Virus record (IMG/VR): IMGVR_UViG_2534681675_000022
DNA from: a virus
Taxonomy: Duplodnaviria > Heunggongvirae > Uroviricota > Caudoviricetes
Direction: 5' to 3' (one strand)
Length of the DNA stretch: 11,637 nucleotides
A program made the position numbers and the translations under genes. How positions within the stretch are numbered: the first letter of the stretch is position 1; the number at the start of each line of letters is the position of its first letter. The notes under the pieces are model-generated. The model saw nothing but the letters and a program-made list of their open reading frames with translations. It did not search any database and had not been told where the DNA came from. Positions 1-11,637 of this stretch are shown in pieces.

Positions 1-1218
1 ATGAACAAACTGAGCGATACCTTGCTAAGGAAACTTCATGGTAAGCCAGCGGAGAAAAACACGTTTTATAGCGATGGCGGAAATCTGAGCGTGAAATATT
101 TAACATCAGGGAAATTAACCTGGTATTTCACTTACAGGGCAGGAACGGGAAGAGAGACACGACCGGAACGTATTAAGCTGGGAAATTATCCTGATCTGAG
201 CCTGAAAGCAGCCAGGGAAAAAGCCGCCCAGTGTCGCGCATGGCTGGCGGAGGGGAAAAATCCACGCCATGAGATGAATTACGCCGTACAGGAAGCGTTA
301 AAGCCGGTAACGGTTGGCGATGCGCTCACCTACTGGCTTGAGTCGTATGTAAAGGAAAACCGCGTGGATTATATCGCCCTGAAAAGGCGACTTAATAATC
401 ACGTAATACAGTACATTGGCGCTATGCCGCTGGATAAATGCGAGCTACGGCACTGGCTGGCCTGTTTTGACCAGGTGGCAAAGCGAACACCTGTTACTGC
501 CGGATTCGTGCTACAGACATGCAAGCAGGCGCTTAAGTTCTGCCGGAGGCGGCGCTTTGCAATCAGCAACGTTCTCGATGATCTGAACGTGGCGGACGTT
601 GGGAAAAAACCGGATATAAGCGAACGTGTCTTAAGCACCAAAGAACTGGGCGAGTTATTGCAGGCGCTGGATAAAAAAATATTTTCTCCTTACTACGTCG
701 CGTTAATCCGCCTCCTGATTGTCTTCGGAGCCAGGACGGTAGAACTGAGGTTATCGGAGATCAGCGAGTGGGATTTTACCGAAATGCTATGGACCGTTCC
801 GAAGGAGCACAGCAAAACGAAGGTTGCAATATTCCGGCCCATACCGGAAGCGATCCTGCCGTTCGTCACGCGGCTGGTGGACCAGAACAGGCACACGGGC
901 TTATTACTGGGGGAAGTGAAACAGGAGGCTAGCGTATCGCAGTACGGCAGATTAGCGCACAGGAGGCTAAAACACCCTCAATGGTCATTGCATGACATCC
1001 GGCGCACCTTTACAACCATGCTGAACGATTTAGGCGTTGATCCTCACGTCGTGGAGCAGCTTACAGGCCACCAGATGCCAGGAATGCAACGCGTGTACAA
1101 CCATTCCCGCTATATTGATGCGAAACGCAATGCGCTTGATATGTGGGTGGAGCGGTTGGAGATACTGGCGGGAACACATGAAAACGTAACCACGCTACCA
1201 GTAACCAGAATAAAATAA
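1..1218 (+). CDS. int: Tyrosine integrase, P4-like (N-terminal arm-type DNA-binding domain plus C-terminal catalytic domain)
   Basis: 405-aa ORF. N-terminus (KLSDTLLRKL...FYSDGGNLSVKY...WYFTYR...IKLGNYPDLSLKAAREKA) fits the arm-binding domain pattern of P4-family integrases; C-terminus has H-x-x-R (LHDIRRTF) and a catalytic Tyr context (VYNHSRY). Judged by motif, not by search. Confidence 0.9.
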   Translation: MNKLSDTLLRKLHGKPAEKNTFYSDGGNLSVKYLTSGKLTWYFTYRAGTGRETRPERIKLGNYPDLSLKAAREKAAQCRAWLAEGKNPRHEMNYAVQEALKPVTVGDALTYWLESYVKENRVDYIALKRRLNNHVIQYIGAMPLDKCELRHWLACFDQVAKRTPVTAGFVLQTCKQALKFCRRRRFAISNVLDDLNVADVGKKPDISERVLSTKELGELLQALDKKIFSPYYVALIRLLIVFGARTVELRLSEISEWDFTEMLWTVPKEHSKTKVAIFRPIPEAILPFVTRLVDQNRHTGLLLGEVKQEASVSQYGRLAHRRLKHPQWSLHDIRRTFTTMLNDLGVDPHVVEQLTGHQMPGMQRVYNHSRYIDAKRNALDMWVERLEILAGTHENVTTLPVTRIK

Positions 1219-1401
1219 TTTTTTTCGTGTTTTTTCAGTATGCGCATACTGGATAAGTGCACAGATACAACGTGAAACAATGTGCAACAACGTGACACAA
1301 TCACGAACAAGAGGCCAAAAAGAATACAGATTTGTAAGTTACTGATTTTTAATGCTCAGCTGGTTTTTTATACATTAGTGAATTACGCGTTAAAGCGTGC
1401 G

Positions 1402-1438
1402 AAAAAAGGCATAAAACAAGATTTTATGCCTTTGTATT
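1402..1438. terminator. Hairpin with flanking A-run and T-run; candidate bidirectional intrinsic terminator between int and alpA
   Basis: GGCATAAAA (1408-1416) / TTTTATGCC (1422-1430) 9-bp stem with 5-nt loop, preceded by AAAAAA and followed by TTTGTATT; reads as hairpin plus U-run on both strands. Confidence 0.35.
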
Positions 1439-1592
1439 AACATGAATTTAAATGATTTTATCCTGATTATTCCTCTTTCTGTAAACCATGCGACACCAAC
1501 ATTTGCCAACTCTGAATCATCCTGACACAATCAGACACATCCCAACGCAATAGAACACGAAATAACTCTTTAAGAAACGAAAGGGGGCAATA

Positions 1593-1781
1593 GTGTTAAG
1601 CACTGATCGGTTTATACGTGAAAAAGAATGCGAAAAGCTAACAGGCCTTAGCCGCTCATGCCGCTACCGCCTGGAAAAGGCCGGACAATTCCCATCACGT
1701 CGTAAACTTGGCGGGCGTTCTGTTGGCTGGTCTTTATCTGAGGTTTTGGCCTGGAAGGATAGCTGCAAGGCAGTTCACTAA
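1593..1781 (+). CDS. alpA: AlpA-family phage transcriptional regulator (small HTH protein)
   Basis: 62-aa ORF with GTG start at 1593 and a GGGGG Shine-Dalgarno upstream. Sequence LTGLSRSCRYRLEKAGQFPSRRKLGGRSVGWSLSEVLAW matches the AlpA/prophage CP4-57 regulator signature. Position directly after int is typical of PICI and P4-like islands. Confidence 0.8.
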   Translation: MLSTDRFIREKECEKLTGLSRSCRYRLEKAGQFPSRRKLGGRSVGWSLSEVLAWKDSCKAVH

Positions 1782-1922
1782 AAAGACTGGCGGCACACAG
1801 TCGCCACACATCCACTAATACAGAGATATAACTATGAAGATTGAATATGCGCCCGAACGTGGGCGGGGATTCGTTCGCCCTGGTGAAACTGAAAAACAAC
1901 AAAATTGGGGTTTTTCAGGCAT

Positions 1923-1951
1923 AAAAAAAGCGGCCCCGATATGGAGCCGCC
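1923..1951 (-). terminator. Intrinsic terminator on minus strand, downstream of the 2025-2228 minus-strand ORF
   Basis: On the minus strand: GCGGC stem, 12-nt loop, GCCGC, then seven T residues. Confidence 0.4.
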
Positions 1952-2024
1952 TTTCTGAACAATTAACCTGCTGCGCCTTATGTGTATGTGATCCCAAACA
2001 TAAGCACGGGAATGATAGCCGCTA

Positions 2025-2228
2025 TCAGGCTGGTGGGCAATTACCTTGCTTGTTGGGGCCGTATTGTGCTGCCATTTTCATCCGTTCAGAACGTGAATAT
2101 TTTTTTAGAAACTCATCAAGGACAAAAGCGCATGGAGCGAATCTTTCTGATTCATGCTCGAGCGCCATATTTTCGTGCTCTCTGTTCGTTTTTTGCGATG
2201 GTGTATTGGTTGATTCTTTATTGGTCAT
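2025..2228 (-). CDS. Hypothetical small protein (67 aa), paralog 1 of a duplicated pair
   Basis: ORF begins MTNK, shares the motif F-x-L-[DE]-[DE]-F-[LV]-x-K-Y with the 2686-2913 ORF, is preceded by the same conserved leader and followed by a minus-strand terminator. The overlapping plus-strand ORFs are Cys/Ser/Arg-rich and look non-coding. Confidence 0.45.
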   Translation of the reverse strand: MTNKESTNTPSQKTNREHENMALEHESERFAPCAFVLDEFLKKYSRSERMKMAAQYGPNKQGNCPPA

Positions 2229-2233
2229 TGTGT

Positions 2234-2279
2234 GTACCTGTAAAGCAATGCGCCGGAGTTCCTCACGCCACGGCGCTGA
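2234..2279. repeat. Conserved ~45-bp leader element, copy 1 (5' of the minus-strand ORF 2025-2228)
   Basis: About 44 of 47 positions identical to 2923-2966. On the minus strand it reads ATCAGCGCCGTGGCGTGAGGAACTCCGGCGCATTGCTTTACAGG, containing a GCGCCG/CGGCGC 6-bp stem. Confidence 0.6.
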
Positions 2280-2521
2280 TGTTTTTTATTCTTTGGGTTC
2301 AATACCGCGTTGCTGTAATTCTTTTCGGATTATTCGTTTTATCCAAGCTGCTAAAGAGTCATCACCGTCTTGTTGTTGTGCTTTTTCCATCTTTTCCCGT
2401 AAGTCAGGATCTAAACGGAACTGGAAAGGAGGATTACCACGCCTTTCATTTTTGTGTGTTGACACGTCAATTACACCCCATATAATGTGTTTATGTGTAT
2501 ATACACATTACACACAACTAG

Positions 2522-2566
2522 CACAAAAAACAACGCCCCGCAGTGATGGGAACACATACGGGGCGT
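2522..2566 (-). terminator. Intrinsic terminator on minus strand, downstream of the 2686-2913 ORF
   Basis: ACGCCCCG / CGGGGCGT 8-bp stem with 18-nt loop; on the minus strand it is followed by TGTTTTTTGTGC. Confidence 0.4.
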
Positions 2567-2685
2567 CTAACCAAACCATTAATTGAGGTAACGATTATGG
2601 CTATAAAAGAGCATAGCTTACTCTTTATACACACACAAACGCCCCGGAAACGGAATAATCCGTTTCATAGTTCGGTTTTGTGCAC

Positions 2686-2913
2686 TCATCCTGGCGGTCG
2701 GTTTTTGCCGGATTTAAGCCGCCGTGGGTATTTATCGACAAAATCTTCAAGGGCAAATTTTTCTGGTGGCACTAAGCGCGGCGCTGGTGGTGGTATTTTT
2801 GTTCTGGTTAGTTCTTCCTCAAGTCTGGCGCAGGCTTCTGACTGCCTTTGCCGGATGATTTCATCATCTTGCGTTTGCGTGTCTTGTATTGGTGATAGTG
2901 TGTTGTTGGTCAT
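2686..2913 (-). CDS. Hypothetical small protein (75 aa), paralog 2 of a duplicated pair
   Basis: ORF begins MTNN, contains FALEDFVDKYPRR (compare FVLDEFLKKYSRS in the 2025-2228 ORF), and has the same leader immediately 5'. Confidence 0.45.
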   Translation of the reverse strand: MTNNTLSPIQDTQTQDDEIIRQRQSEACARLEEELTRTKIPPPAPRLVPPEKFALEDFVDKYPRRLKSGKNRPPG

Positions 2914-2922
2914 GTTACTGCC

Positions 2923-2966
2923 CTGTAAAGCAATGCGCCGTAGTACCTCACACCACGGCGCTGATA
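2923..2966. repeat. Conserved ~45-bp leader element, copy 2 (between RHH gene stop and ORF 2686-2913)
   Basis: Near-identical to 2234-2279. The three differences all fall in the loop of the GCGCCG/CGGCGC hairpin, so the stem is preserved. Confidence 0.6.
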
Positions 2967-2970
2967 GTGA

Positions 2971-3150
2971 TTATTCTGATTCTTTGGCCTTGCGGCGCTG
3001 GCGGCGTTTGATCTCGCCTTCAAGTGCCGAAACGATAAATTGCCCTGTACTTTCGCCATCTTCCTTTAAATTTTCTACAGCATCAGCTATTGCGTGTGGT
3101 ACTCGAGCCTCAAGCTTTTTGGATTTTGCATTAACTGCTTTTGTTGCCAT
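2971..3150 (-). CDS. Ribbon-helix-helix (Arc/MetJ/CopG-like) DNA-binding protein, 59 aa; candidate island repressor
   Basis: Internal ATG at 3148-3150 with a GAGGAAA Shine-Dalgarno; the ORF track's longer 106-aa version has a poor N-terminus. MATKAVNAKSKKLEARVPHAIADAVENLKEDGESTGQFIVSALEGEI fits the RHH strand/helix/G-x-S/helix pattern (compare Arc ...NLRWPREVLDLVRKVAEENGRSVNSEIYQRV). Divergent from the rightward operon. Confidence 0.5.
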   Translation of the reverse strand: MATKAVNAKSKKLEARVPHAIADAVENLKEDGESTGQFIVSALEGEIKRRQRRKAKESE

Positions 3151-3171
3151 ATCTGATTTCCTCGTTATTAG

Positions 3172-3251
3172 GTGGCTGACAGTATACACACAAGAAAACG
3201 GAAAAACACTATTGACGTGGCTGACACCCGTTACTAATATAGTGGCTGACA
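3172..3251. promoter_or_regulatory. Divergent control region: three direct repeats GTGGCTGACA overlapping a sigma70-like promoter
   Basis: Perfect 10-bp GTGGCTGACA at 3172-3181, 3217-3226 and 3242-3251. TTGACG (3212-3217), 17-bp spacer, TAATAT (3235-3240) faces the plus-strand operon; repeats overlap the -35 and abut the -10. Confidence 0.5.
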
Positions 3252-3344
3252 CCTTTATCAAGGTAATCGATGAAAAGACAAAGCCCCGCAAGTGTCGTTA
3301 CCACTCGCAGGGCTTCTAACCAACAACGTAAACTAGGAGCCGTT

Positions 3345-3542
3345 ATGGTTGCCGTAAATCATATACCACACCTTGTACACACACAAACTGCCTTTGTGTG
3401 GCGTTTTCTGGCCCTGAGTGCCGGAGAATCTCAAATCATCCACGTCACCGCCTGGACGGAACGCGAAGCGCGTAACCGTTGCCCGTCCGGTTGTGTTGCT
3501 GTATTTGCCGCCCGTATTCGTCAGGAGGTGCGCCATGATTAA
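3345..3542 (+). CDS. Hypothetical protein (65 aa), first gene of rightward operon
   Basis: ATG at 3345 preceded by AGGAG; the longer ORF-track version starts upstream of the RBS. Stop overlaps the start of the next ORF. Confidence 0.5.
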   Translation: MVAVNHIPHLVHTQTAFVWRFLALSAGESQIIHVTAWTEREARNRCPSGCVAVFAARIRQEVRHD

Positions 3543-3747
3543 TCTGTCACTTACTGACCTTAACCGCATTCAGTTTCGTGAGAAATTCACAGGGCAGCTA
3601 CTGGTCAATGTGGATAAAGGTCGCGTGGTGTGTAATTACCACTTACCAGATGAAGCAATTGTCGCCACAAGGGAATCATTACAGGAAATCACAAAACGTG
3701 CCGGAATGATTAACACGAATATTCAGGGGATGCTTTATGCACAATAA
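3535..3747 (+). CDS. Hypothetical protein (70 aa)
   Basis: ATG at 3535 preceded by CAGGAGGTG; translationally coupled to the flanking ORFs. Confidence 0.5.
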   Translation: MINLSLTDLNRIQFREKFTGQLLVNVDKGRVVCNYHLPDEAIVATRESLQEITKRAGMINTNIQGMLYAQ

Positions 3748-3967
3748 AACCACACCGGACGCAGCAGAAGAAGCAATGCAAATACTGATACGTGCGCTCG
3801 TTGATGTTACCCACATGGTGGAGATTATGGAGAGAAAATCACAGTCGGAGCACGACAAAAGAAAACTTAAAACAATAAAAATAATTGCCAAAAACTCGCT
3901 GATAAAAGTTACAGACATCCTTAATGAGGACATTAAAAGAATAAGGGAGAAAATTTGTGATGCATAA
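3737..3967 (+). CDS. Hypothetical protein (76 aa), AT-rich
   Basis: ATG at 3737 with upstream CAGGGGA; Lys/Ile/Glu-rich helical-looking protein; local GC is visibly lower than in neighbours. Confidence 0.5.
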   Translation: MHNKTTPDAAEEAMQILIRALVDVTHMVEIMERKSQSEHDKRKLKTIKIIAKNSLIKVTDILNEDIKRIREKICDA

Positions 3968-4187
3968 AATCCCTTTTGAAGTATTAATCCACTCTGAAAA
4001 CGCATTAATTAAAGCACGCGAAATGAATGCGTTGTTAATTAAATTAATTGAAGTGCCGGAAGGTGGTGAGGAATCAGGTGTATTAATGTTTGCAGCCATT
4101 CAGACATTACTATCGCCTGTTATTGATGAACTGGATAAGGCAATGGCAATTCACGAAAATAATAACGCGCCCCACACCGGAGAATAA
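3957..4187 (+). CDS. Hypothetical protein (76 aa), AT-rich
   Basis: GTG 3957 or ATG 3960 with AAGGGAGA upstream; overlaps the previous stop. Confidence 0.5.
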   Translation: MMHKIPFEVLIHSENALIKAREMNALLIKLIEVPEGGEESGVLMFAAIQTLLSPVIDELDKAMAIHENNNAPHTGE

Positions 4188-4192
4188 AAATA

Positions 4193-4492
4193 ATGAAACT
4201 TAAATATTCTGGCTTAACTGCCAGTGGCAACACTCACCCTAAATTTACGCGCGGTGATATTTACCGCGACCAGTACGGCGGCACGGTAATGATTAAGGGC
4301 GTGGCGGGACGGTGCGTAACTTACCGCCATGAAGGTTACGAATATGATTGCGTGATGCCTGTTTATCAGTTCCGGCGTGATTTTTCTCTGGTACAGACCG
4401 CGCCGCATAACGTGCCCACCAGCAACGCCAGGGCACGGGCAAACATCCAGAAGCTGAAAACCATGATTAACGGATTCAGGGGTAAAAAATGA
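4193..4492 (+). CDS. Hypothetical protein (99 aa), overlaps start of replication gene
   Basis: ATG 4193 with GGAGA upstream; its stop overlaps the ATG of the primase ORF (ATGA coupling). Confidence 0.55.
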   Translation: MKLKYSGLTASGNTHPKFTRGDIYRDQYGGTVMIKGVAGRCVTYRHEGYEYDCVMPVYQFRRDFSLVQTAPHNVPTSNARARANIQKLKTMINGFRGKK

Positions 4493-6237
4493 AACTGGCA
4501 CCGAACGTAAAAAAACAGCCACGCGGAATAAAACACAAAGACACAGAGGTAATTATCTTTGCGGGTAGTGATGCCTGGTCGCACGCGAAACAATGGCAGG
4601 AGCAGGATGGCCCCGCATCCGGCGATAATGTGCCGCCTGTGTGGCTTGGGCCAAAGCAGCTTGCCGAACTTGATGCGCTGAAAATTGTTCCGGATGGGAA
4701 AAAGCGCGTAAGGCTGTACCAGGCCGGAGAACTGGATTTAGTGGAGACCAAAAAGATTGGTCAGAAGCTGGCGGCGGCAGATATTCAGGACGCAAATTTT
4801 TACCACGAAGGAATGCACGTCCAGAAGTGTGAAAACTGGCGGCGCTATCTGAATGCTGAGCGTGAAAATATTGCCGCAGGGCTTACCATGCCGGAGCAGA
4901 AAAATACGCAACTGGCACAAATGGCAGACAGTGAGCGCGCACAGATGCTTGCTGGTCGATTTGATGGCGTTTGTGTGCATCCGGAAAGTGAAATCGTTCA
5001 CGTATGGCGCGGCGGGGTATGGTGTCCGGTCAGCACAATGGAACTTAGCCGCGAAATGGTGGCGATCTATTCAGAGCACAGGGCCACTTTCAGCAAACGC
5101 GTGATCAATAACGCCGTTGAAGCGTTAAAAGTTATTGCCGAACCAATGGGGGAGCCGTCCGGCGATTTGTTGCCGTTCGCCAATGGTGCGCTTGACCTGA
5201 AAACGGGGGAATTTTCCCCGTACACGCCGGAGAACTGGATCACCACGCACAACGGCATTGAGTACACGCCACCAGCACCTGGGGAGAACATCCGCGATAA
5301 CGCGCCAAACTTTCATAAATGGCTTGAGCACGCAGCCGGAAAAGACCCGCGCAAGATGATGCGTATATGTGCCGCGCTGTACATGATTATGGCGAACCGG
5401 TACGACTGGCAGATGTTTATTGAGGCCACCGGAGACGGCGGGAGCGGTAAAAGTACATTCACACACATAGCCAGCCTTCTGGCAGGGAAACAGAACACGG
5501 TAAGCGCTGAAATGACATCGCTTGATGATGCTGGTGGACGTGCGCAGGTTGTCGGGAGTCGTCTTATCGTCCTGGCAGACCAGCCGAAATATACAGGCGA
5601 AGGAACGGGCATCAAGAAAATCACGGGCGGCGACCCCGTGGAAATAAACCCGAAATATGAAAAGCGTTTCACGGCGGTAATCAGGGCGGTGGTGCTGGCG
5701 ACCAATAATAACCCGATGATATTCACCGAACGGGCCGGAGGTGTGGCACGTCGTCGCGTGATTTTCCGTTTCGACAATATTGTTAGTGAGGCCGAAAAAG
5801 ACAGGGAACTACCGGAAAAAATTGCGGCTGAAATCCCCGTTATTATCCGCCGCTTGCTGGCGAACTTTACCGACCCTGAAAAGGCGAGGGCTTTACTACT
5901 GGAACAGCGTGACGGTGATGAAGCACTGGCAATAAAGCAACAGACGGATCCGGTTATTGAGTTTTGCCAGTTCCTGAATTTTCTGGAGGAAGCGCGCGGC
6001 CTGATGATGGGTGGCGGTGGTGATTCAGTGAAGTACACGACCAGGAACAGCCTTTACCGCGTCTATCTGGCGTTTATGGCATACGCAGGCAGGAGCAAAC
6101 CGCTAAACGTGGCTGAGTTCAGCAAGGCCATGAAGCCAGCGGCGAAAGTTTACGGGCATGAATATATTACGCGAAAAGTTAAGGGAGTAACGCAGACCAA
6201 CGCAATTACAACAGACGATTGCGACGCGTTTTTATAA
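4489..6237 (+). CDS. Replication initiator: phage/plasmid primase-associated D5_N-type domain plus P-loop (SF3-helicase-like) NTPase
   Basis: 582-aa ORF. Walker A GDGGSGKST and a Walker B-like hydrophobic stretch RLIVLADQ; central region typical of the P4-family primase C-terminal/D5_N architecture; located directly upstream of an iteron array. Confidence 0.85.
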   Translation: MKLAPNVKKQPRGIKHKDTEVIIFAGSDAWSHAKQWQEQDGPASGDNVPPVWLGPKQLAELDALKIVPDGKKRVRLYQAGELDLVETKKIGQKLAAADIQDANFYHEGMHVQKCENWRRYLNAERENIAAGLTMPEQKNTQLAQMADSERAQMLAGRFDGVCVHPESEIVHVWRGGVWCPVSTMELSREMVAIYSEHRATFSKRVINNAVEALKVIAEPMGEPSGDLLPFANGALDLKTGEFSPYTPENWITTHNGIEYTPPAPGENIRDNAPNFHKWLEHAAGKDPRKMMRICAALYMIMANRYDWQMFIEATGDGGSGKSTFTHIASLLAGKQNTVSAEMTSLDDAGGRAQVVGSRLIVLADQPKYTGEGTGIKKITGGDPVEINPKYEKRFTAVIRAVVLATNNNPMIFTERAGGVARRRVIFRFDNIVSEAEKDRELPEKIAAEIPVIIRRLLANFTDPEKARALLLEQRDGDEALAIKQQTDPVIEFCQFLNFLEEARGLMMGGGGDSVKYTTRNSLYRVYLAFMAYAGRSKPLNVAEFSKAMKPAAKVYGHEYITRKVKGVTQTNAITTDDCDAFL

Positions 6238-6250
6238 TTTTTTGTAAAAG

Positions 6251-6477
6251 CCCTCTACCCCATCTACCTGAATGAAATAAACGCATATTATTCAACATGA
6301 TAAGTGGGTAGAGGGCCAGGTAGAAGGCTAATAAAAGCTCTCTACCTCTTCTACCTGATTTTATCAGTTTCAGATGGCAGGGTAGACGGCAGGTAGAGGA
6401 GCACCAAAAGCTATCTACCCGCTGAAAGCCGCGCCATTACTGACATGATGAGCATTCGGGTAGATGGGTAGAGGGGG
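6251..6477. repeat. Iteron array (candidate replication origin)
   Basis: About 11 copies of GGTAGA[GATC]GG in both orientations, arranged in pairs (CCCTCTACCCCATCTACC; GGGTAGAGGGCCAGGTAGAAGG; CTCTCTACCTCTTCTACC; GGGTAGACGGCAGGTAGAGG; CTATCTACCC; GGGTAGATGGGTAGAGGG) with AT-rich spacers, immediately 3' of the replication gene. Confidence 0.7.
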
Positions 6478-6520
6478 GGAGGCACAACTAAAAACTTTTT
6501 AAACGAGGGGGTGAAAATAA

Positions 6521-6835
6521 ATGCGCATACATCAAAATCACTTAACAAACATGCCAGCCGAAAACATGAATCAGGGGCGACAAATGACCAAAATTCGCAG
6601 AGACAGAACAGAGCCAAAATATAAAGCGTTAGACATGACTGAGCACACCTTAAAGGTGGCAATCAGAACGATAGACCGCCACACGCGGGAAGGATACGCG
6701 AAGGAACATCCCGAACTGATAAGCGCATTCATGACCACAGCGGCGGCAAACTTTGCCACGCTGACAGAACGGGAGATTGCCGAAGCGGAACAGGTAACAA
6801 CCATCAACGTTAAAACCGGAGAGGTGGAATCATGA
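6521..6835 (+). CDS. Hypothetical protein (104 aa)
   Basis: ATG 6521 preceded by GAGGGGGTG; its stop overlaps the SSB start. Confidence 0.5.
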   Translation: MRIHQNHLTNMPAENMNQGRQMTKIRRDRTEPKYKALDMTEHTLKVAIRTIDRHTREGYAKEHPELISAFMTTAAANFATLTEREIAEAEQVTTINVKTGEVES

Positions 6836-7242
6836 CAGCACAGATAGCCGCTTACGGGCGGCTGGTGGACGACCCGCAGGTAAAACAGACCAGCAAGGGC
6901 ACACCGATGACGCTGGCGCGTATGGCGGTCCCCCTTCCGTGCAGCCAGGCAGATGACGGAACGGCTACGTTATGGCTATCGGTGATGGCATTTGGTAAGC
7001 AGGCCGACTTCCTGGCTAAACATCAAAAAGGCGACGTTGCCAGCATATCTGGCGTGATGCAGATAAGCCAGTGGACCGGACTGAACGGGGAAACGCGGCA
7101 GGGTTATCAGGTTATTGCAGACAGCGTAATCAGTGCCCGTGCGGCACGTCCTGGCGGGAACAGACGCAAAACCACAGGCGCACAGGGTAATCAGCCACCA
7201 GCGGGAGACGATGACCCCTACGGTGATGATATTCCGTTCTGA
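6832..7242 (+). CDS. ssb: Single-stranded DNA-binding protein (OB fold) with acidic C-terminal tail
   Basis: 136-aa ORF. N-terminal GRLVDDPQVKQTSKG and the W...FGK...KG...G spacing fit the SSB OB fold; Gly/Gln/Pro-rich linker; C-terminal DDDPYGDDIPF is the canonical SSB tail motif. Confidence 0.75.
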   Translation: MTAQIAAYGRLVDDPQVKQTSKGTPMTLARMAVPLPCSQADDGTATLWLSVMAFGKQADFLAKHQKGDVASISGVMQISQWTGLNGETRQGYQVIADSVISARAARPGGNRRKTTGAQGNQPPAGDDDPYGDDIPF

Positions 7243-7250
7243 ACGCACAG

Positions 7251-7273
7251 GCCGGAGAAAATCCGGCTTTTTG
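7251..7273 (+). terminator. Intrinsic terminator after ssb
   Basis: GCCGGA gaaaa TCCGGC followed by TTTTT. Nearly identical to the terminator at 9517-9542. Confidence 0.7.
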
Positions 7274-7276
7274 TAC

Positions 7277-7325
7277 CCAAAAAAAGCCCGATAAGTACAG
7301 GAGGAAGCTTATCGGGCTTTTGCTT
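7277..7325. terminator. Second hairpin with flanking A/T runs; candidate bidirectional terminator
   Basis: AAGCCCGATAAG (7284-7295) / CTTATCGGGCTT (7308-7319) 12-bp stem, 12-nt loop, preceded by AAAAAAA and followed by TTTGCTT. Confidence 0.5.
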
Positions 7326-7394
7326 ACGAGGTTAACAGCATGGTGACTACTGTTGCTGTAAATCATTTCATAATTTGCAACGCAACTCAATTTT

Positions 7395-7444
7395 ATTGCG
7401 CAAAATGCAATCATGATTATAATCATAACTGGATGAACATCCAG
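7395..7444 (+). promoter_or_regulatory. Candidate late-operon promoter with embedded palindromic operators
   Basis: Perfect TATAAT (7418-7423) with a weak -35 (TTGCGC, 17-bp spacer). The -10 sits inside a perfect 14-bp palindrome ATGATTATAATCAT (7413-7426), followed by a perfect 16-bp palindrome CTGGATGAACATCCAG (7429-7444). Confidence 0.4.
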
Positions 7445-7479
7445 TTGTGATTTTTTAAGTCAAAGAGGAATTTCTGACT

Positions 7480-7686
7480 ATGGCAGAAGAGAAAAAAGGC
7501 GGTGTTTCGGTGTACATAAGCCCCGAAATCGTGGAGGTGCTCAAGCAGCGCCACAAAAAAAACTATGAGGCTGGCGTAGCGGCTGGACTGGATCCGCTGA
7601 TGACGCCGGAGCCGTCGATAGGTTCACTTGTGCGCTCTTATTTACTTGCGGCGCTTGGGATGCATAAAAATTATGGGGGTGAATAA
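7480..7686 (+). CDS. Hypothetical protein (68 aa), first gene of capsid operon
   Basis: ATG 7480 with AGAGGA upstream; its stop overlaps the ATG of the major capsid gene. Confidence 0.55.
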   Translation: MAEEKKGGVSVYISPEIVEVLKQRHKKNYEAGVAAGLDPLMTPEPSIGSLVRSYLLAALGMHKNYGGE

Positions 7687-8741
7687 TGGCAGGCAAAGCA
7701 ACGGCACTTAACACTAACCAGCTTTTTGCGTACCTGAATCGCGGGGATATTGCGGAATTTAAATTCAGTCCGCTGTTTACCACGCTGTTTTTCCCGAACG
7801 TGGCGACATTCAGCACCCAAAACATCATGCTGGATACCCTGGACATTGAAGAAGTCACCATGTCGGCGTTTTGTTCGCCTATGGTTGGCAGCCAGGTACA
7901 GCGCGATAAAGGATACGAAACCAGCACGATTAAACCTGGCTACATGAAGCCAAAGCACGAAATCGATCCAACAAAAACCATCATGCGCATGGCTGGAGAA
8001 GATCCGGCACAGCTTAACGACCCTACCTACCGACGTATGCGCCTGATTACTGGCAACATGCGCCGCCAGGTAAACGCCATTAAAGCGCGCGTGGAATGGC
8101 TGGCGGTGAATGCGATAACGACCGGAAAAAACATTATTGAGGGCGAAGGCATAGAACGCTATGAAATAGACTGGAAAATACCGGAAAACTGCATCATAGA
8201 GCAGGCCAAGGGTAAAAAATGGTCCGAGCAGGATAAAGAGATGCACGACCCAATCTATGACATCGAGCTTTATGCAGATCAGGCTGGTTGCCCCGCAAAC
8301 GTCATGATTATGGGCGCTGAGGTATGGCGCACGTTACGCAGCTTTAAAAAATTCCGTGAGCTGTACGATCTTTCCCGTGGTTCAGAATCCGCCGCAGAAC
8401 TGGCCTGTAAAAACCTGGGCGAAGTGGTGAGCTTTAAAGGCTATCTGGGCGATATTGCCCTTATCGTCTATTCCGGCAAATACGCTGACAGCGACGGCAC
8501 CGAAAAATATTTCCTTGAGCCTGATTTACTGGTCCTGGGTAACACCAACAATAAAGGCCTGGTGGCCTATGGTGCGATTATGGATCAGGAAGCGGTCAGA
8601 ACGGGCGCAACGCAAAACATGTACTACCCGAAAAACTGGATTGAGGACGGCGATCCGGCGATTGAGTACGTGCAGACACACAGCGCACCGCAGCCGGTAC
8701 CGGCAGATATTCGCAAATTTGTTACCGTCAAAATTGGTTAA
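7686..8741 (+). CDS. Major capsid protein, phage lambda gpE family
   Basis: 351-aa ORF colinear over its whole length with lambda gpE (341 aa) as I recall it: EFKFSPLF vs KFKFDPLF; PGYMKPKHEI vs PGYVKPKHEV; EDPAQLNDPTYRRMR vs EDPQNLADPAYRRRR; SRGSESAAELACKNLGEVVSFKGYLGDIALIVYSGKY vs RRGSNSELETAVKDLGKAVSYKGMYGDVAIVVYSGQY; YPKNWIEDGDPAIEY vs YPKNWVTTGDPAREF. Confidence 0.9.
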   Translation: MAGKATALNTNQLFAYLNRGDIAEFKFSPLFTTLFFPNVATFSTQNIMLDTLDIEEVTMSAFCSPMVGSQVQRDKGYETSTIKPGYMKPKHEIDPTKTIMRMAGEDPAQLNDPTYRRMRLITGNMRRQVNAIKARVEWLAVNAITTGKNIIEGEGIERYEIDWKIPENCIIEQAKGKKWSEQDKEMHDPIYDIELYADQAGCPANVMIMGAEVWRTLRSFKKFRELYDLSRGSESAAELACKNLGEVVSFKGYLGDIALIVYSGKYADSDGTEKYFLEPDLLVLGNTNNKGLVAYGAIMDQEAVRTGATQNMYYPKNWIEDGDPAIEYVQTHSAPQPVPADIRKFVTVKIG

Positions 8742-8752
8742 CGGGGGATTCT

Positions 8753-9088
8753 ATGGACACTCCATACATTGAGTTATTCGCAGGCAGTCAGCAGGTCGCC
8801 ACGACGCTGGTACATTTTGCCGCTGATGCTGGCGTTATTCAGGAATTTACCCCGCTGATGCTGGCGGACAATGGCGAGTTTAAGCCGTGGGATGGTCAGG
8901 AATCTGGCAAGGCTGTTTATCTGACTTCGTACCCCGTGGACACGTCGACGCAGAAATCAGCACAGTGTTACAAGACGGGGATATTTAATATCGCTGCCGT
9001 AAACTGGCCTGAGAGCGCCGACACTGACGCGAAAAAATGCGCTGCCTTTGCGGGGGCTGGCGTATCCGTTCAGCCGCTGGCCCGATAA
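8753..9088 (+). CDS. Head decoration protein, phage lambda gpD family
   Basis: 111-aa ORF. TPLMLADNGEFKPWDG, YKTGIF and WPESADTDAKKCAAFAGAGVSV match lambda gpD ([46 protein letters not shown]). GGGGGA Shine-Dalgarno upstream. Confidence 0.85.
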   Translation: MDTPYIELFAGSQQVATTLVHFAADAGVIQEFTPLMLADNGEFKPWDGQESGKAVYLTSYPVDTSTQKSAQCYKTGIFNIAAVNWPESADTDAKKCAAFAGAGVSVQPLAR

Positions 9089-9097
9089 GCAGGGGGA

Positions 9098-9514
9098 ATG
9101 ATGGCAACGAATGAAAGCATCATGACGCTACCGCTGGCGAGTAAATTTAAAGCCGAAGCGCGGGCAATGGCTGACAGAGGGTTATCAACCTACGAGGGCA
9201 TATATCAACTTAACAAACTGGAAGAGCAGGACAAGCCGCGCGCTGATTCGATTATGGCGCTTGATGAATCTGGCGACTATCAGCCGCTGTTACGTGCAAT
9301 GGCAAACGTGCCTTGTATCGATGTTGGTACGGCTAAAAGCATCCTTAGCATGACCATAGAGCAGGAACGTCCGAAGGTTGCGCCGGAGCTTACCGCAGCC
9401 TTTGAAAACTTTATGGACACGCACAGCCCGCAAGCCGTATCAGCTGGCATGGCATACGATGGCAGAAACCCGGGCGATGACGGCGACATCGATCGCATAC
9501 TGAAAACCATCTGA
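9098..9514 (+). CDS. Hypothetical protein (138 aa) downstream of the capsid genes
   Basis: ATG 9098 or 9101 after AGGGGG; last gene before the terminator and cos. Sits where lambda has FI, but I could not support sequence similarity to FI. Confidence 0.55.
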   Translation: MMATNESIMTLPLASKFKAEARAMADRGLSTYEGIYQLNKLEEQDKPRADSIMALDESGDYQPLLRAMANVPCIDVGTAKSILSMTIEQERPKVAPELTAAFENFMDTHSPQAVSAGMAYDGRNPGDDGDIDRILKTI

Positions 9515-9516
9515 GA

Positions 9517-9542
9517 CAGGCCGGAGAAATCCGGCTTTTTTT
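9517..9542 (+). terminator. Intrinsic terminator after the capsid operon, abutting cos
   Basis: GCCGGA gaaa TCCGGC followed by eight T residues; near-duplicate of the 7251-7273 terminator. Confidence 0.75.
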
Positions 9543-9610
9543 ACGGGTCCTTTCCGGCATATGGACCCGTTACGGGGCGGCGACCTCGCGCGTTTTCGCT
9601 ATTTATGAGC
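9543..9610 (+). other. Lambda-type cos site A: cosQ-side flank, cosN (12-nt cohesive end GGGCGGCGACCT at 9575-9586) and first ~24 bp of the cosB side
   Basis: ACGGGTCCTTTCCGG...GTTACG GGGCGGCGACCT CGCGCGTTTTCGCTATTTATGA is almost base-for-base the lambda right-end/left-end junction as I recall it; similarity ends after TTTATGA. Confidence 0.75.
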
Positions 9611-9719
9611 CTTTTCAGGGGGGTGGTGGTGGTTTTGTTGTTTGCTCTATCTTTATGAATGAAAAGGGAAAGATGCAAACAATACACCAACCTGAAGCAG
9701 TAATTAAGTTGGTGTATTA

Positions 9720-10262
9720 ATGAAATCGCACCTGATGAACAAAAAAAACATGGCGAAAAGCTGCCGTGTAAGTGCGACAGCGTTCGACAAGTGGGGAGTG
9801 ACTCCCGTTGAACGTAAAGGCCGTGAGGCGTTTTATGATGTTGCCAGCGTGATAGACAATAGGGTTAACAATGCAATTAGCCAGCTTACAAACGACAAAG
9901 GCGATATTGATGATGATGAACTCTTACGAGTCAGGATCAGATTACTGACAGCACAGGCGGAGGCGCAGGAACTTAAAAACGAGCGCGATCGCGGTGACGT
10001 GATTGATACTGAGTTTTGCCTGTACGCGCTTTCAAAGCTGGCGAGTCAGATTTCATCAATCATGGACAGCCTCCCGCTTACTATGCAAAGGAGCTTCCCA
10101 CAGATTACCCCCGCCATGCTGGACAGGCTTAAAAGGGAAGTGGTTAAAGCCTGTAATGCCAGTGCCAGAGTTGCCGACAACCTCCCACAGATACTGGCTG
10201 ATTACTTGAAAGAAACAACCGGAAACGTACCGGAAAAGTTGCTACAGAAGAAAGGCAAGTAA
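9720..10262 (+). CDS. Terminase small subunit, lambda Nu1 family
   Basis: 180-aa ORF. C-terminal two-thirds align with lambda Nu1: LLTAQAEAQELKNERD vs LTRAQADAQELKNARD; FCLYALSKLASQISSIMDSLPLTMQRSFPQ vs FCTFVLSRIAGEIASILDGLPLSVQRRFPE; LKREVVKACN vs LKRDIIKAMN. N-terminal wHTH region is recognisable (NKK..., YDVASVI vs YDSAAVI) but divergent in the recognition-helix region. Start could be 9720, 9735 or 9750. Confidence 0.85.
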   Translation: MKSHLMNKKNMAKSCRVSATAFDKWGVTPVERKGREAFYDVASVIDNRVNNAISQLTNDKGDIDDDELLRVRIRLLTAQAEAQELKNERDRGDVIDTEFCLYALSKLASQISSIMDSLPLTMQRSFPQITPAMLDRLKREVVKACNASARVADNLPQILADYLKETTGNVPEKLLQKKGK

Positions 10263-10288
10263 CAGAAGCGCAATTATTGAACAAAAAT

Positions 10289-10490
10289 GAGAAAGGATCT
10301 GATAATGGCATTTTCTGGCTAAAATGCCTCGTGTCAGATCCTTTCTTTTTTTAATATTTTCATTGTTAAACAGTCTGTTACAGAGAAGAAGAACGGATCT
10401 GACTTTTGCCGGAAAATTTTCATAAACAGATAAAAACCGCGAGGTCGCCGCCCCGTAACGGGCCATAATTCCAGGAAGGACCCGACGACA
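10289..10490 (-). other. Lambda-type cos site B in inverted orientation: cosQ-side flank, cosN (10442-10453) and a full cosB-like region with three R-like repeats
   Basis: Minus strand reads CGGGTCCTTCCTGGAATTATGGCCCGTTACG GGGCGGCGACCT CGCGGTTTTTATCTGTTTATGAAAATTTTCCGG ...CCGTTCTTCTTC..., tracking lambda cos for more than 100 bp. Core GGATCTGA/TCAGATCC at 10294-10301, 10333-10340 and 10395-10402 sits where lambda has CGTTTCC/GGAAACG, in the same orientation pattern. The inner 13-bp inverted repeat (10289-10301 / 10333-10345) plus T-run also looks like a terminator for terS. Confidence 0.75.
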
Positions 10491-10517
10491 CCAGGCTATC
10501 AGAACGATGGGGGCACA

Positions 10518-10799
10518 ATGACAGAAGCCGAACTACTGCGATTAATCCGCCGCGTTACCGGAATCAGCCAGCAGCATGACGAACAGGGCACGCAACCGGA
10601 CAGCGTGACCGCTGAAAATTATGCGCGTGTTGTTGCTGAGGTGATGCGCCGTGATGGTATTGAGCTTAACGGCGTGGATATGCGCAACATACGAACCAGA
10701 GTCCTTGAGTTGCTGGCATACCGTCGCCGCGTGGAGATGTATCGGGAGAAGGAGAAAATCACGTACCACTGGAAGAAGCCGGAACGGTTGCGGCGGTAA
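10518..10799 (+). CDS. Hypothetical protein (93 aa) just outside cos B
   Basis: ATG 10518 after GATGGGGG; Arg-rich helical-looking protein; no recognisable family. Confidence 0.4.
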   Translation: MTEAELLRLIRRVTGISQQHDEQGTQPDSVTAENYARVVAEVMRRDGIELNGVDMRNIRTRVLELLAYRRRVEMYREKEKITYHWKKPERLRR

Positions 10800-10882
10800 C
10801 TCACTGAGATTAAAGCAAAGCTCAAAATTGCGCTGGCTGAATGATCATTATGATTACTTATGTTTACGCAGATGATTAAGGC
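10789..10882. repeat. Direct repeat, copy 1 (~90 bp), overlapping the 3' end of the 93-aa ORF
   Basis: GGCGGTAACT...TTAAAGCAAAGC[TG]CAAAATTGCGCTGGCTGAAT[GA]ATCATTATGATTAC...GCAGATGATTAAGG; copy 1 has an extra TTATGTT relative to copy 2. Confidence 0.6.
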
Positions 10883-10922
10883 CTAAACCGTTGATTATTC
10901 CACAATCCCCCATTGGGGGAAG

Positions 10923-11005
10923 CTGGCGGTAACTGGTTGAACTTAAAGCAAAGCGCAAAATTGCGCTGGCTGAATAATCATTATGATTACGCAGATGATT
11001 AAGGA
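10923..11005. repeat. Direct repeat, copy 2 (~83 bp)
   Basis: Same unit as 10789-10882. Contains the AGCGCAA aa TTGCGCT hairpin and the ATCATTATGAT palindrome. Confidence 0.6.
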
Positions 11006-11022
11006 ATGACCGAAGGCGGAAA

Positions 11023-11322
11023 TTCGCCTGTGGTTGATGGGGGAGTTGCAGATCTGCAACTCGACCATGAAATTACGGAAACTACCCGTAGTTTGGGTAG
11101 TAAGAGCAACACCCAGATTTTGGGGCTTACTCGTGATACCCAAATTTGGGGTATCGGCGGCAACCATAACGACTTTCGTTACGGTTGATGCTTTTACCCC
11201 ATTGAGGGAAAGGTATTACGATAATCATAACACCTACCGAACAGGTAAAGCCCACCAGCCTGATTAACTGTTAACCGGAAAAAAATTCCGGTAGGGTTCC
11301 CGATATGGGAATCCCCATATCG
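11023..11322. other. Palindrome-dense non-coding region near the right end of the island (candidate att arm / regulatory or structured RNA region)
   Basis: Consecutive perfect or near-perfect palindromes: AGGCGGAAATTCGCCT; GTTGCAGATCTGCAAC (16 bp); AAACTACCCGTAGTTT; GATACCCAAATTTGGGGTATC; TTAACTGTTAA; CCGGAAAAAAATTCCGG; CGATATGGGAATCCCCATATCG. No convincing ORF. Confidence 0.4.
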
Positions 11323-11484
11323 ACAGCAACGCCCCCTTAAAATTACCCGCCTTTATATTTCTTGTGCCTATTTGTTCCACGTTGTTTCATACAGTGCGCC
11401 GAACGGTGTAGTCACTGGTGTAGTTATTTTGAGTTTTTTTGCACTTCGGGCTTAATTGAAAATATAATTAAATCAGTATGTTAT

Positions 11485-11637
11485 TCAAAATAAGTTATAT
11501 ATAACAGCAATAAATAATGCGAGAATAAACGGCACGAGGATCTCGGCGGCAAAACGGATACCGCAGAGAATAATGACCAGCATTCCCAACATAATGACGA
11601 TTTTTAGACCATTGAGCGTGATGATCGGCTTTGCCAT
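11485..11637 (-). CDS. Short ORF (50 aa): N-terminal fragment resembling the AI-2 exporter TqsA/YdgG (AI-2E family) membrane protein, apparently truncated at the island junction
   Basis: Minus-strand translation from the ATG at 11637: [46 protein letters not shown], then YNLF and stop. This matches the TqsA N-terminus as I recall it for ~46 residues; the downstream sequence becomes AT-rich and unrelated. Confidence 0.5.

Follow-up and report, generated by a model that had tools for sequence, protein, structure and literature searches.

The 11,637-nucleotide stretch of viral DNA analysed here (IMG/VR virus record IMGVR_UViG_2534681675_000022, hereafter the window) is very probably an Escherichia coli phage-inducible chromosomal island (PICI) of the classical kind, and a complete one. 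It would belong to the EcCICFT073/EcCI042 lineage, sit in the gene tqsA, have in its packaging-specificity cassette the allele for TerS (small terminase) and not the one for Rpp, and follow the life cycle proposed below. Within the family of classical E. coli PICIs the island is a mosaic, and it bears the common TerS allele. The kind of element is already known: publications from 2018 to 2023 cover its gene-set definition, its attachment (att) site and its genes for capsid and decoration proteins. A preliminary description of the same DNA had seen a satellite with a PICI/P4-like backbone and a lambda-type head and packaging module, in a combination that matched no classical satellite gene set. 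Its inventory stands, as profile matches and the iteron count confirm the integrase (int), AlpA, the primase and iteron origin, a single-strand DNA-binding protein (SSB), the major capsid protein (MCP), the decoration protein (Dec), TerS and cos, and the two tqsA halves in the flanks agree with a satellite of such a backbone carrying lambda-family head and packaging genes. The supposed novelty of the combination does not survive comparison. EcCICFT073 is collinear with the island at 84-96% protein identity, a Type A PICI is made of the same five parts, a 2018 paper had named E. coli PICIs that encode TerS, and PICIs in tqsA with the same core were tabulated in that year. The island thus falls into a family whose gene set had been described before, the very outcome that the preliminary description had named as telling against its claim.

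The PICI model of SatelliteFinder consists of an integrase, an AlpA regulator, a primase-replicase, a capsid morphogenesis gene and TerS, and 375 elements with all five parts are on record, 97% of them in E. coli. All of the Type A components are present in the window, namely an integrase at the left end, an AlpA gene co-oriented with int, a primase-replicase with an iteron origin, a capsid gene and TerS, and none of the components forbidden in Type A (tail, holin, portal, head-tail connector) appears in the inventory of open reading frames (ORFs) or in the profile scans. The same inventory and scans place no portal, protease, connector or large terminase (TerL) gene in the island, and besides the integrase, the primase and the MCP no ORF longer than 180 amino acids (aa) has a family match.

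The insertion site can be read from the junctions of the split target gene. The chromosome of E. coli OkiPb01694 is near-identical, and in it tqsA is divided at the 9-bp core ATAACAGCA; the right-hand copy of the core (attR) lies at 11501-11509 and the left-hand copy (attL) about 190 nt upstream of window base 1, which gives an element length of 11,696 bp from core to core. The left end of the element therefore lies just outside the window, beyond the extent of 1-11497 first assigned to the island. The flanks consist of ordinary chromosomal genes (pntAB, the two halves of tqsA, ydgV and mdtJI), the window contains no tRNA or tmRNA gene as an integration target, and remnants of tail, lysis or immunity genes appear neither inside the element nor next to it; the flanking genes are free of phage remnants. 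The right end (11404-11509) combines the attR core with a 21-nt arm-type repeat, CGGTGTAGTCACTGGTGTAGT, at 11404-11424. This direct repeat, which is built of a tandem GGTGTAGT motif, has a second copy inside the left end of the element (5941-5961 of the stretch examined), and the two are probably arm-type integrase binding sites. In the bovine sister strain E. coli OkiPb01681 the island copy is 99.9% identical and its integrase is frameshifted (189-1417 of the stretch examined), so that this copy is probably locked in the chromosome.

The preliminary description had itself raised the alternative of a decayed lambdoid prophage. Such a remnant would be reduced to cos, Nu1, E and D, and the membership of the head and terminase genes in lambda families would suit such an origin. 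It is nevertheless vanishingly improbable, given that the flanks are tqsA halves with a 9-bp att core and are free of tail and lysis remnants, and that the order E-D-Nu3-cos-Nu1 is not the lambda order. Moreover, the compact layout recurs at no fewer than three att sites and in hundreds of genomes, and the island possesses its own primase, iterons and SSB alongside genes that are under purifying selection.

The feature that sets the island apart from its Rpp-type relatives is confined to a single cassette (9616-10409), the only module in which they differ, which holds cosB1, the specificity gene and cosB2. Nucleotide homology to the islands of strains CFT073 and 042 ends at 9616 and resumes at 10409, and both breakpoints lie about 45 nt inside the respective inverted cos copy. 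The slot is occupied by a full-length Nu1-type TerS of 180 aa on the plus strand (9720-10262; PF07471, 2.3e-23; phrog_57, 3.2e-53), compared with a 144-aa gene in CFT073 (RppA) and in 042. By alignment this TerS is a mosaic: the protein is 33% identical to gp1 of phage 21 and 46% identical to gp1 of N15, its DNA-binding domain reaches 58% with N15 gp1 and 21-23% with the proteins of lambda, 21 and PhiR5_1, and for the final 50 aligned residues the best match is PhiR5_1 Nu1 (48%). According to Murialdo and Feiss, TerS binds TerL through a domain in its C-terminal 40 residues; they argue that Rpp, which is 30-40 residues shorter at the C-terminus and so lacks this domain, needs the TerS of the helper. 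RppA stops about 40 residues before the end of the island TerS and has no tail aligned to the TerL-binding region; identity between the two proteins is 18% across the aligned length but 6% when the C-terminal 50 residues are taken alone, with no blastp match. An Rpp is a winged helix-turn-helix protein of about 139-154 aa without the TerL-binding tail, and the island TerS, which has the tail, does not conform to this description. A search against all PDB chains returned no Rpp match for TerS, nor for the 137-aa ORF of the head block described below.

Among 5,426 complete E. coli genomes, the TerS cassette is present in 722 at a coverage of at least 80%, and the rppA cassette of CFT073 in 53. 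Carriers of the TerS allele include O157:H7, O145:H28 and Nissle 1917, and all of the terS contexts sampled are PICIs of the same layout, located at tqsA, roxA/phoQ or yejO/narP. A more divergent island is found in E. coli NCTC10444 (5093-7978 of the stretch), with an MCP region of about 65% DNA identity, a 127-aa helix-turn-helix protein in the position of the Nu3-like ORF (see below) and no second cos site, cos2; it carries the same TerS allele (86% DNA identity) and the same first cos site, cos1.

The lambda cohesive end GGGCGGCGACCT occurs twice, from 9575 on the plus strand and from 10453 on the minus strand, and is in both copies preceded by the cosQ sequence GGGTCCTT. The two copies form a 76-nt inverted repeat around terS, so that the lambda cos reported at the outset is indeed there, in two copies and not one. 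The site in the phage-like position upstream of terS, cos1 (9545-9719, plus strand, with the cohesive end from 9575), comprises cosQ, cosN and a satellite-specific cosB. Its R3 position, +48 to +69 after cosN, consists of (GGT)4 followed by TTGTTGTTT and is resembled by the GTTGTTGTTT that N15 has at +51 to +60. Since cos1 thereby resembles N15 R3 in the same way as the DNA-binding domain of TerS resembles N15 gp1, a pairing of TerS with cos1 is supported; the sequence downstream of cos1 is kept in all four of the TerS-type islands examined. The comparison with Rpp-type islands at this position yields a further observation. TerS-type cos1 has GGTGGTGGTGGT at +48 to +59 (9622-9633), whereas the Rpp-type cos1 of CFT073 has ACCACCACC at +55 to +63 (15613-15621 of the stretch), a segment proposed as R3-PICI (Murialdo and Feiss). 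The two are reverse complements of each other at nearly the same position, which may reflect a related recognition in opposite orientation, or chance.

The inverted site, cos2 (10284-10483, minus strand, with the cohesive end from 10453), is a second complete cos. It has phage-type R boxes (CAGATCCKTTCT) at 10390-10401, 10335-10346 and 10290-10301, three where 0.07 would be expected, and its region is 89.5% identical to cosN/I2 of phage 21. Upstream of its own terS, the lambdoid prophage SerU-LTIIb carries these three boxes with an identical spacing, and a search of INPHARED found no phage with the full cosB of cos2, the partial SerU-LTIIb record being the only one with all three boxes. A GATC, the Dam methylation site, is present in all three R boxes of cos2 and in the matching SerU-LTIIb boxes, and is not found in the aligned R boxes of lambda and phage 21. 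In the SerU-LTIIb record a coding sequence named 'nu1' (795-1013) spans the cos region and looks spurious; the cosN is degenerate (GGGGGTCTGGGGACGCG) and terS is truncated at 139 aa, which suggests that SerU-LTIIb is a defective prophage. Across islands with the same TerS, cos2 is of the CAGATCC type (the window, EC4115), of the phage-21 type (Nissle) or absent (NCTC10444). Because cos1 co-varies with TerS and cos2 varies, we infer that cos1 is a private site of the island TerS and cos2 an interchangeable, helper-type site.

A life cycle can be proposed for the island, of which the first two steps are taken from homology to EcCICFT073 and the others from the anatomy of the element. A lambdoid helper would switch on alpA, whereupon Int and AlpA would excise the 11.7-kb element. 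The primase-helicase would then fire the GGTAGA iteron origin, with the island SSB helping, and generate concatemers. In the packaging step the full-length island TerS would bind the satellite-specific cosB of cos1, while its C-terminal tail would recruit the TerL of the helper to a cosN that is identical to those of lambda and phage 21, so that island DNA and not phage DNA would be cut and packaged; unlike in the Rpp system, the helper TerS should be unneeded. Four units (46.8 kb) would fill one full-size lambdoid head, which agrees with the published multimer packaging of the EcCICFT073 family in full-size heads. Finally, the inverted cos2 with its phage-type R boxes may provide a second entry point for the TerS of a matching helper. 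A packaging route of this kind would resemble the TerS strategy of the pathogenicity islands of Staphylococcus aureus (SaPIs) more closely than the Rpp strategy.

Several points weigh against this reading. The islands of strains IHE3034 and 18098, which according to the 2018 paper 'encode TerS', were tested in the same year and were not mobilised by resident prophages, and beyond these tests no experiment on a TerS-type E. coli PICI was found, so that the mobility of the subtype is putative. The binding of TerS to cos1 and to the helper TerL is likewise predicted from alignments, in which the C-terminal tail is at most 48% identical to any phage TerS examined. A search for helper candidates among the 5,426 genomes, made by way of a cosB/terS matching cos2, gave no helper; the SerU-type cosB/terS is present in 38 of them, as opposed to the hundreds that have the island cassette, so that co-residence of island and matching prophage finds no support. 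Given this small number, most carriers are probably without a matching resident helper, a rarity that fits the failure of resident prophages to mobilise TerS-type islands in 2018. Lastly, deletion of cos2 from EcCICFT073 slightly raised transfer, and a second cos therefore need not be beneficial.

The size of the element had also been brought forward as evidence, but it weighs little. The estimate of about four copies per lambda head holds, as 46.8 kb corresponds to 96.5% of the lambda length and three units to 72%. The match to the size of the P4 genome is uninformative, because any unit larger than about 7.6 kb has a multiple that falls within the lambda limits of 38-51 kb. A size close to that of P4, together with the P4-type integrase and AlpA, would also be expected of a P4-like satellite whose P2-directed module had been swapped for a lambda-directed one, and a P4-family primase C-terminal domain is detected just below its cut-off. 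However, integrase, AlpA and primase are common to PICIs, for which reason SatelliteFinder scores P4 itself as a Type C PICI. In a scan of 20 ORFs nothing matched Sid, Psu, Delta or Epsilon, the cos has the 12-nt end of lambda and is not of the P2 type, and the closest relatives are named PICIs, all of which makes a P4-like ancestry highly improbable.

Upstream of the cassette lies a block of head genes, all of them on the plus strand. It starts with a 68-aa ORF (7480-7686; phrog_3255) that is coupled to the start of the MCP gene and keeps its position in CFT073, 042, EC4115 and Nissle. The MCP belongs to the lambda gpE family (7686-8741; PF03864, 4.6e-51), matches PDB 3BQW ('putative capsid protein of prophage') with an E value of 1.5e-231, and is 96% identical to c1499 of EcCICFT073 and 44% identical to phage-21-type gpE. 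The decoration protein, of the lambda gpD family (8753-9088; PF02924, 3.4e-17), is 96% identical to c1500 of EcCICFT073. The preliminary description had called the head and packaging genes lambda-specific, which is correct as far as the lambda families are concerned but overstated in view of the 33% and 46% identity of TerS to the gp1 proteins of phage 21 and N15 and the 44% of the MCP. Its list of head genes rightly included the MCP and Dec and overlooked a third, a 137-aa ORF (9101-9514) that resembles the Nu3/gpC-type scaffold tail of head proteases. This ORF aligns with positions 496-567 of the 583 of phrog_53 (E 1.8e-8) and is 37% identical to residues 415-493 of a 501-aa S49 gpC-type protease of the phage-21-like CFT073 prophage; in lambda, that C-terminal part of gpC is the Nu3 scaffold. 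RefSeq names for near-identical copies vary between 'hypothetical protein' and 'phage head-tail connector protein' (e.g. OkiPb01681, 9300-9713 of the stretch). The alignment gives no support to the connector label and matches the scaffold tail instead.

The dN/dS ratio of the MCP gene is 0.08-0.10, that of the decoration gene 0.07-0.09 and that of terS 0.19, on which basis the three genes are judged to be under purifying selection and functional; the Nu3-like scaffold is counted with the MCP and Dec as maintained by selection. Strong selection on the shell genes (dN/dS about 0.08) could mean that the island is a partial capsid-former, in which its MCP, Dec and Nu3-like scaffold would act on the portal and protease of a helper to build small or chimeric satellite shells, a position between the classical and the capsid-forming PICIs. 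The three shell components do lie together. The block from the 68-aa ORF through the MCP and Dec to the Nu3-like ORF is flanked by terminator-like hairpins with T runs at 7421-7452 and 9518-9537, the latter directly before the cosQ of cos1; the counts in the promoter and terminator scan were at chance level overall, so that these sites are weak annotation only. A capsid gene is present in 21 of the 29 reference Gram-negative PICIs, and in SaPIbov5 the MCP homologue Ccm is reported to make small capsids. Even so, we consider a partial capsid-former quite unlikely. Deletion of c1499 or c1500 from EcCICFT073, whose products are 96% identical to those of the window, left both transfer and interference unchanged. 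An EcCICFT073 carrying a cat insertion in c1499 reaches a transfer of about 1e5, and the authors conclude that full-size heads are used. The island has no portal, protease or connector gene of its own. A single copy had been thought to fit a T=4-sized head. Capacity ratios of known T=7/T=4 pairs are near 0.35, which leads to an estimate of about 17 kb for a lambda-derived T=4 head, and by this estimate one 11.7-kb copy would underfill it.

A more far-reaching proposal joins several of these elements. In it, the TerS-type EcCI islands would constitute a mechanistically distinct and numerically dominant sub-class of E. coli PICIs with 'two-door' packaging, in which TerS and the private cos1 bypass the helper TerS and an exchangeable cos2 mimics the helper; the cassette would be swapped by recombination in the inverted cosQ-cosN repeats, and the head trio would build or remodel shells together with a cognate helper. 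As a joint claim this is conceivable but doubtful. The reading preferred here is that of a classical PICI with a TerS cassette.

The replication initiator (4489-6237, plus strand) joins the C-terminal region of a P4-family primase to an SF3 helicase (D5_N, DUF5906, Pox_D5; TIGR01613, 106 bits) and is 90% identical to the Pri of EcCICFT073. Directly after its gene lies the replication origin (6245-6475), which is made of GGTAGA/TCTACC iterons in both orientations: the window has 12 GGTAGA copies, and 11 of them are located within 6254-6472, when 2.6 would be expected by chance in the window as a whole. An 83-aa ORF to which no function is assigned (6584-6835, plus strand) is followed by the SSB gene (6832-7242, plus strand; PF00436, 6.1e-14), whose product is 93% identical to the EcCICFT073 SSB. 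Replication initiators differ among islands that are otherwise near-identical, with the P4-type primase in the window, a RepA-family helicase in EC4115 (5151-6551) and 042 (5925-7325 of the stretches examined), and a DUF927 protein elsewhere. To judge from these comparisons, the islands exchange their replication modules just as freely as they do the packaging cassette.

At the window's left end, the P4-type tyrosine integrase (1-1218, plus strand; Pfam Arm-DNA-bind_3 and Phage_integrase) is 91% identical to the Int of EcCICFT073 and begins, according to RefSeq, at a GTG that lies 12 nt upstream of the window. The excisionase-type activator AlpA (1593-1781, plus strand; PF05930, 5e-18) is 95% identical to that of EcCICFT073, and in PICIs of this type AlpA is the switch turned on by the helper phage (PMC6092414). 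A leftward regulatory block on the minus strand (2025-3150; PHROG 228, Arc-like repressor; NCBIfam NF041551; RefSeq coding sequences) consists of two paralogous pairs, the first an Arc-like ribbon-helix-helix (RHH) protein (2286-2465) with a small ORF (2025-2228), the second a YlcI/YnfO RHH protein (2971-3150) with a small ORF (2686-2913). The islands of CFT073 and 042 have a single such pair as against the two in the window, and the block has the look of a regulatory or immunity module that was duplicated and then diverged.

Further along the plus strand follow an Icd-like protein (3345-3542; NCBIfam NF033153, 5.2e-18), three small ORFs that extend to 4187 and belong to PHROG families of unknown function, and a 99-aa DUF4222 ORF that overlaps the start of the primase gene (4193-4492) and is 90% identical to the CFT073 copy. 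The latter is a homologue of RgdR, a published regulator of type III secretion from the enterocyte effacement locus (LEE) and of motility, which is itself 99 aa long with RGD at residues 20-22 and is represented in CFT073 by the variant C1493 (PMC3378721). The window copy likewise has RGD at residues 20-22, shares with C1493 an A at position 10, and constitutes accessory virulence-regulatory cargo. The 93-aa ORF behind the cassette (10518-10799, plus strand; phrog_1561, 1.9e-56), which is conserved and follows the slot in every related island examined, had been a candidate for RgdR and was rejected in favour of the DUF4222 ORF. A PADLOC scan of the small ORFs for defence cargo gave one weak and implausible match (Cas8g, E 6e-4, in a 67-aa ORF), and neither TerS nor any of the 68-, 83-, 93- and 137-aa ORFs received a name from NCBIfam.

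As a discovery the island matters little, as elements of its type are already published. The TerS allele is, by the genome counts given above, far commoner than the well-studied rppA allele of CFT073, and the remaining interest lies at the level of the family, in the identity of the helper, in TerS-directed cos packaging and in the role of the head genes. Considering the carriage of RgdR and the use of the family in engineered DNA delivery, knowledge of which phages move the TerS type would be of practical value.

A first comparison is with EcCICFT073, the prototype Gram-negative PICI, which is of the Rpp type (Fillol-Salom 2018, 2019) and was reported in 2018 with its capsid (c1499) and decoration (c1500) genes. 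The window island is collinear with it from int to the last ORF, and in addition to the identities already given (Int 91%, AlpA 95%, RgdR 90%, Pri 90%, SSB 93%, MCP and Dec 96%) the Nu3-like ORF is 96% and the 93-aa ORF 84% identical. Both islands place the specificity gene between two inverted lambda-type cos sites, and full-head multimer packaging, the function of pri-ori and the dependence on AlpA have all been published for EcCICFT073. Helper-dependent induction and replication, with transfer at high frequency, have likewise been shown for EcCICFT073 only. The differences are that both cosB regions diverge, with an identity of about 0.2 beyond +45, that the window has no PerC gene, and that its att site is tqsA and not roxA/phoQ. 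The tqsA site is shared with EcCI042 and EcCIK1516, which are PICIs in tqsA with the ATAACAGCA core (Table S1, Fillol-Salom 2018). EcCI042 has the same layout as the window, a head block that is 94% identical and several proteins with identical RefSeq accessions; unlike in the window, its slot is filled by a 144-aa gene of Rpp size, a RepA-type helicase takes the place of the primase, and PerC is present.

More distant systems share individual strategies with the island. The capsid-forming PICIs, such as EcCIEDL933, have in common with it the int-alpA-rep backbone and an MCP of their own. They carry, in addition, a portal, a protease, head-tail connectors, HNH and a TerL, and build small capsids of their own, whereas none of these genes is present in the window; as no portal, protease or TerL family was matched, assignment to this class is excluded. 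In the pac-type SaPIs the satellite TerS(S) redirects the large terminase of the helper to satellite DNA, much as proposed here for the island. The window differs from them in being cos-type with a Nu1-family TerS, and in having no recognisable Ppi-like inhibitor of the helper TerS.

The TerS cassette itself can be compared with that of two further PICIs. The 11.2-kb PICI of O157:H7 EC4115, listed in the 2018 supplement, shares the whole block 7251-10838, which takes in TerS and the two cos sites, with the window at an identity of 94%. In both EC4115 and Nissle 1917 the series of 68-aa ORF, MCP, Dec, Nu3-like ORF, cos1, TerS, cos2 and 93-aa ORF is maintained at 92-94%, while the replication module (a RepA helicase in EC4115), the att site and the specificity of cos2 (of the phage-21 type in Nissle) differ from those of the window.

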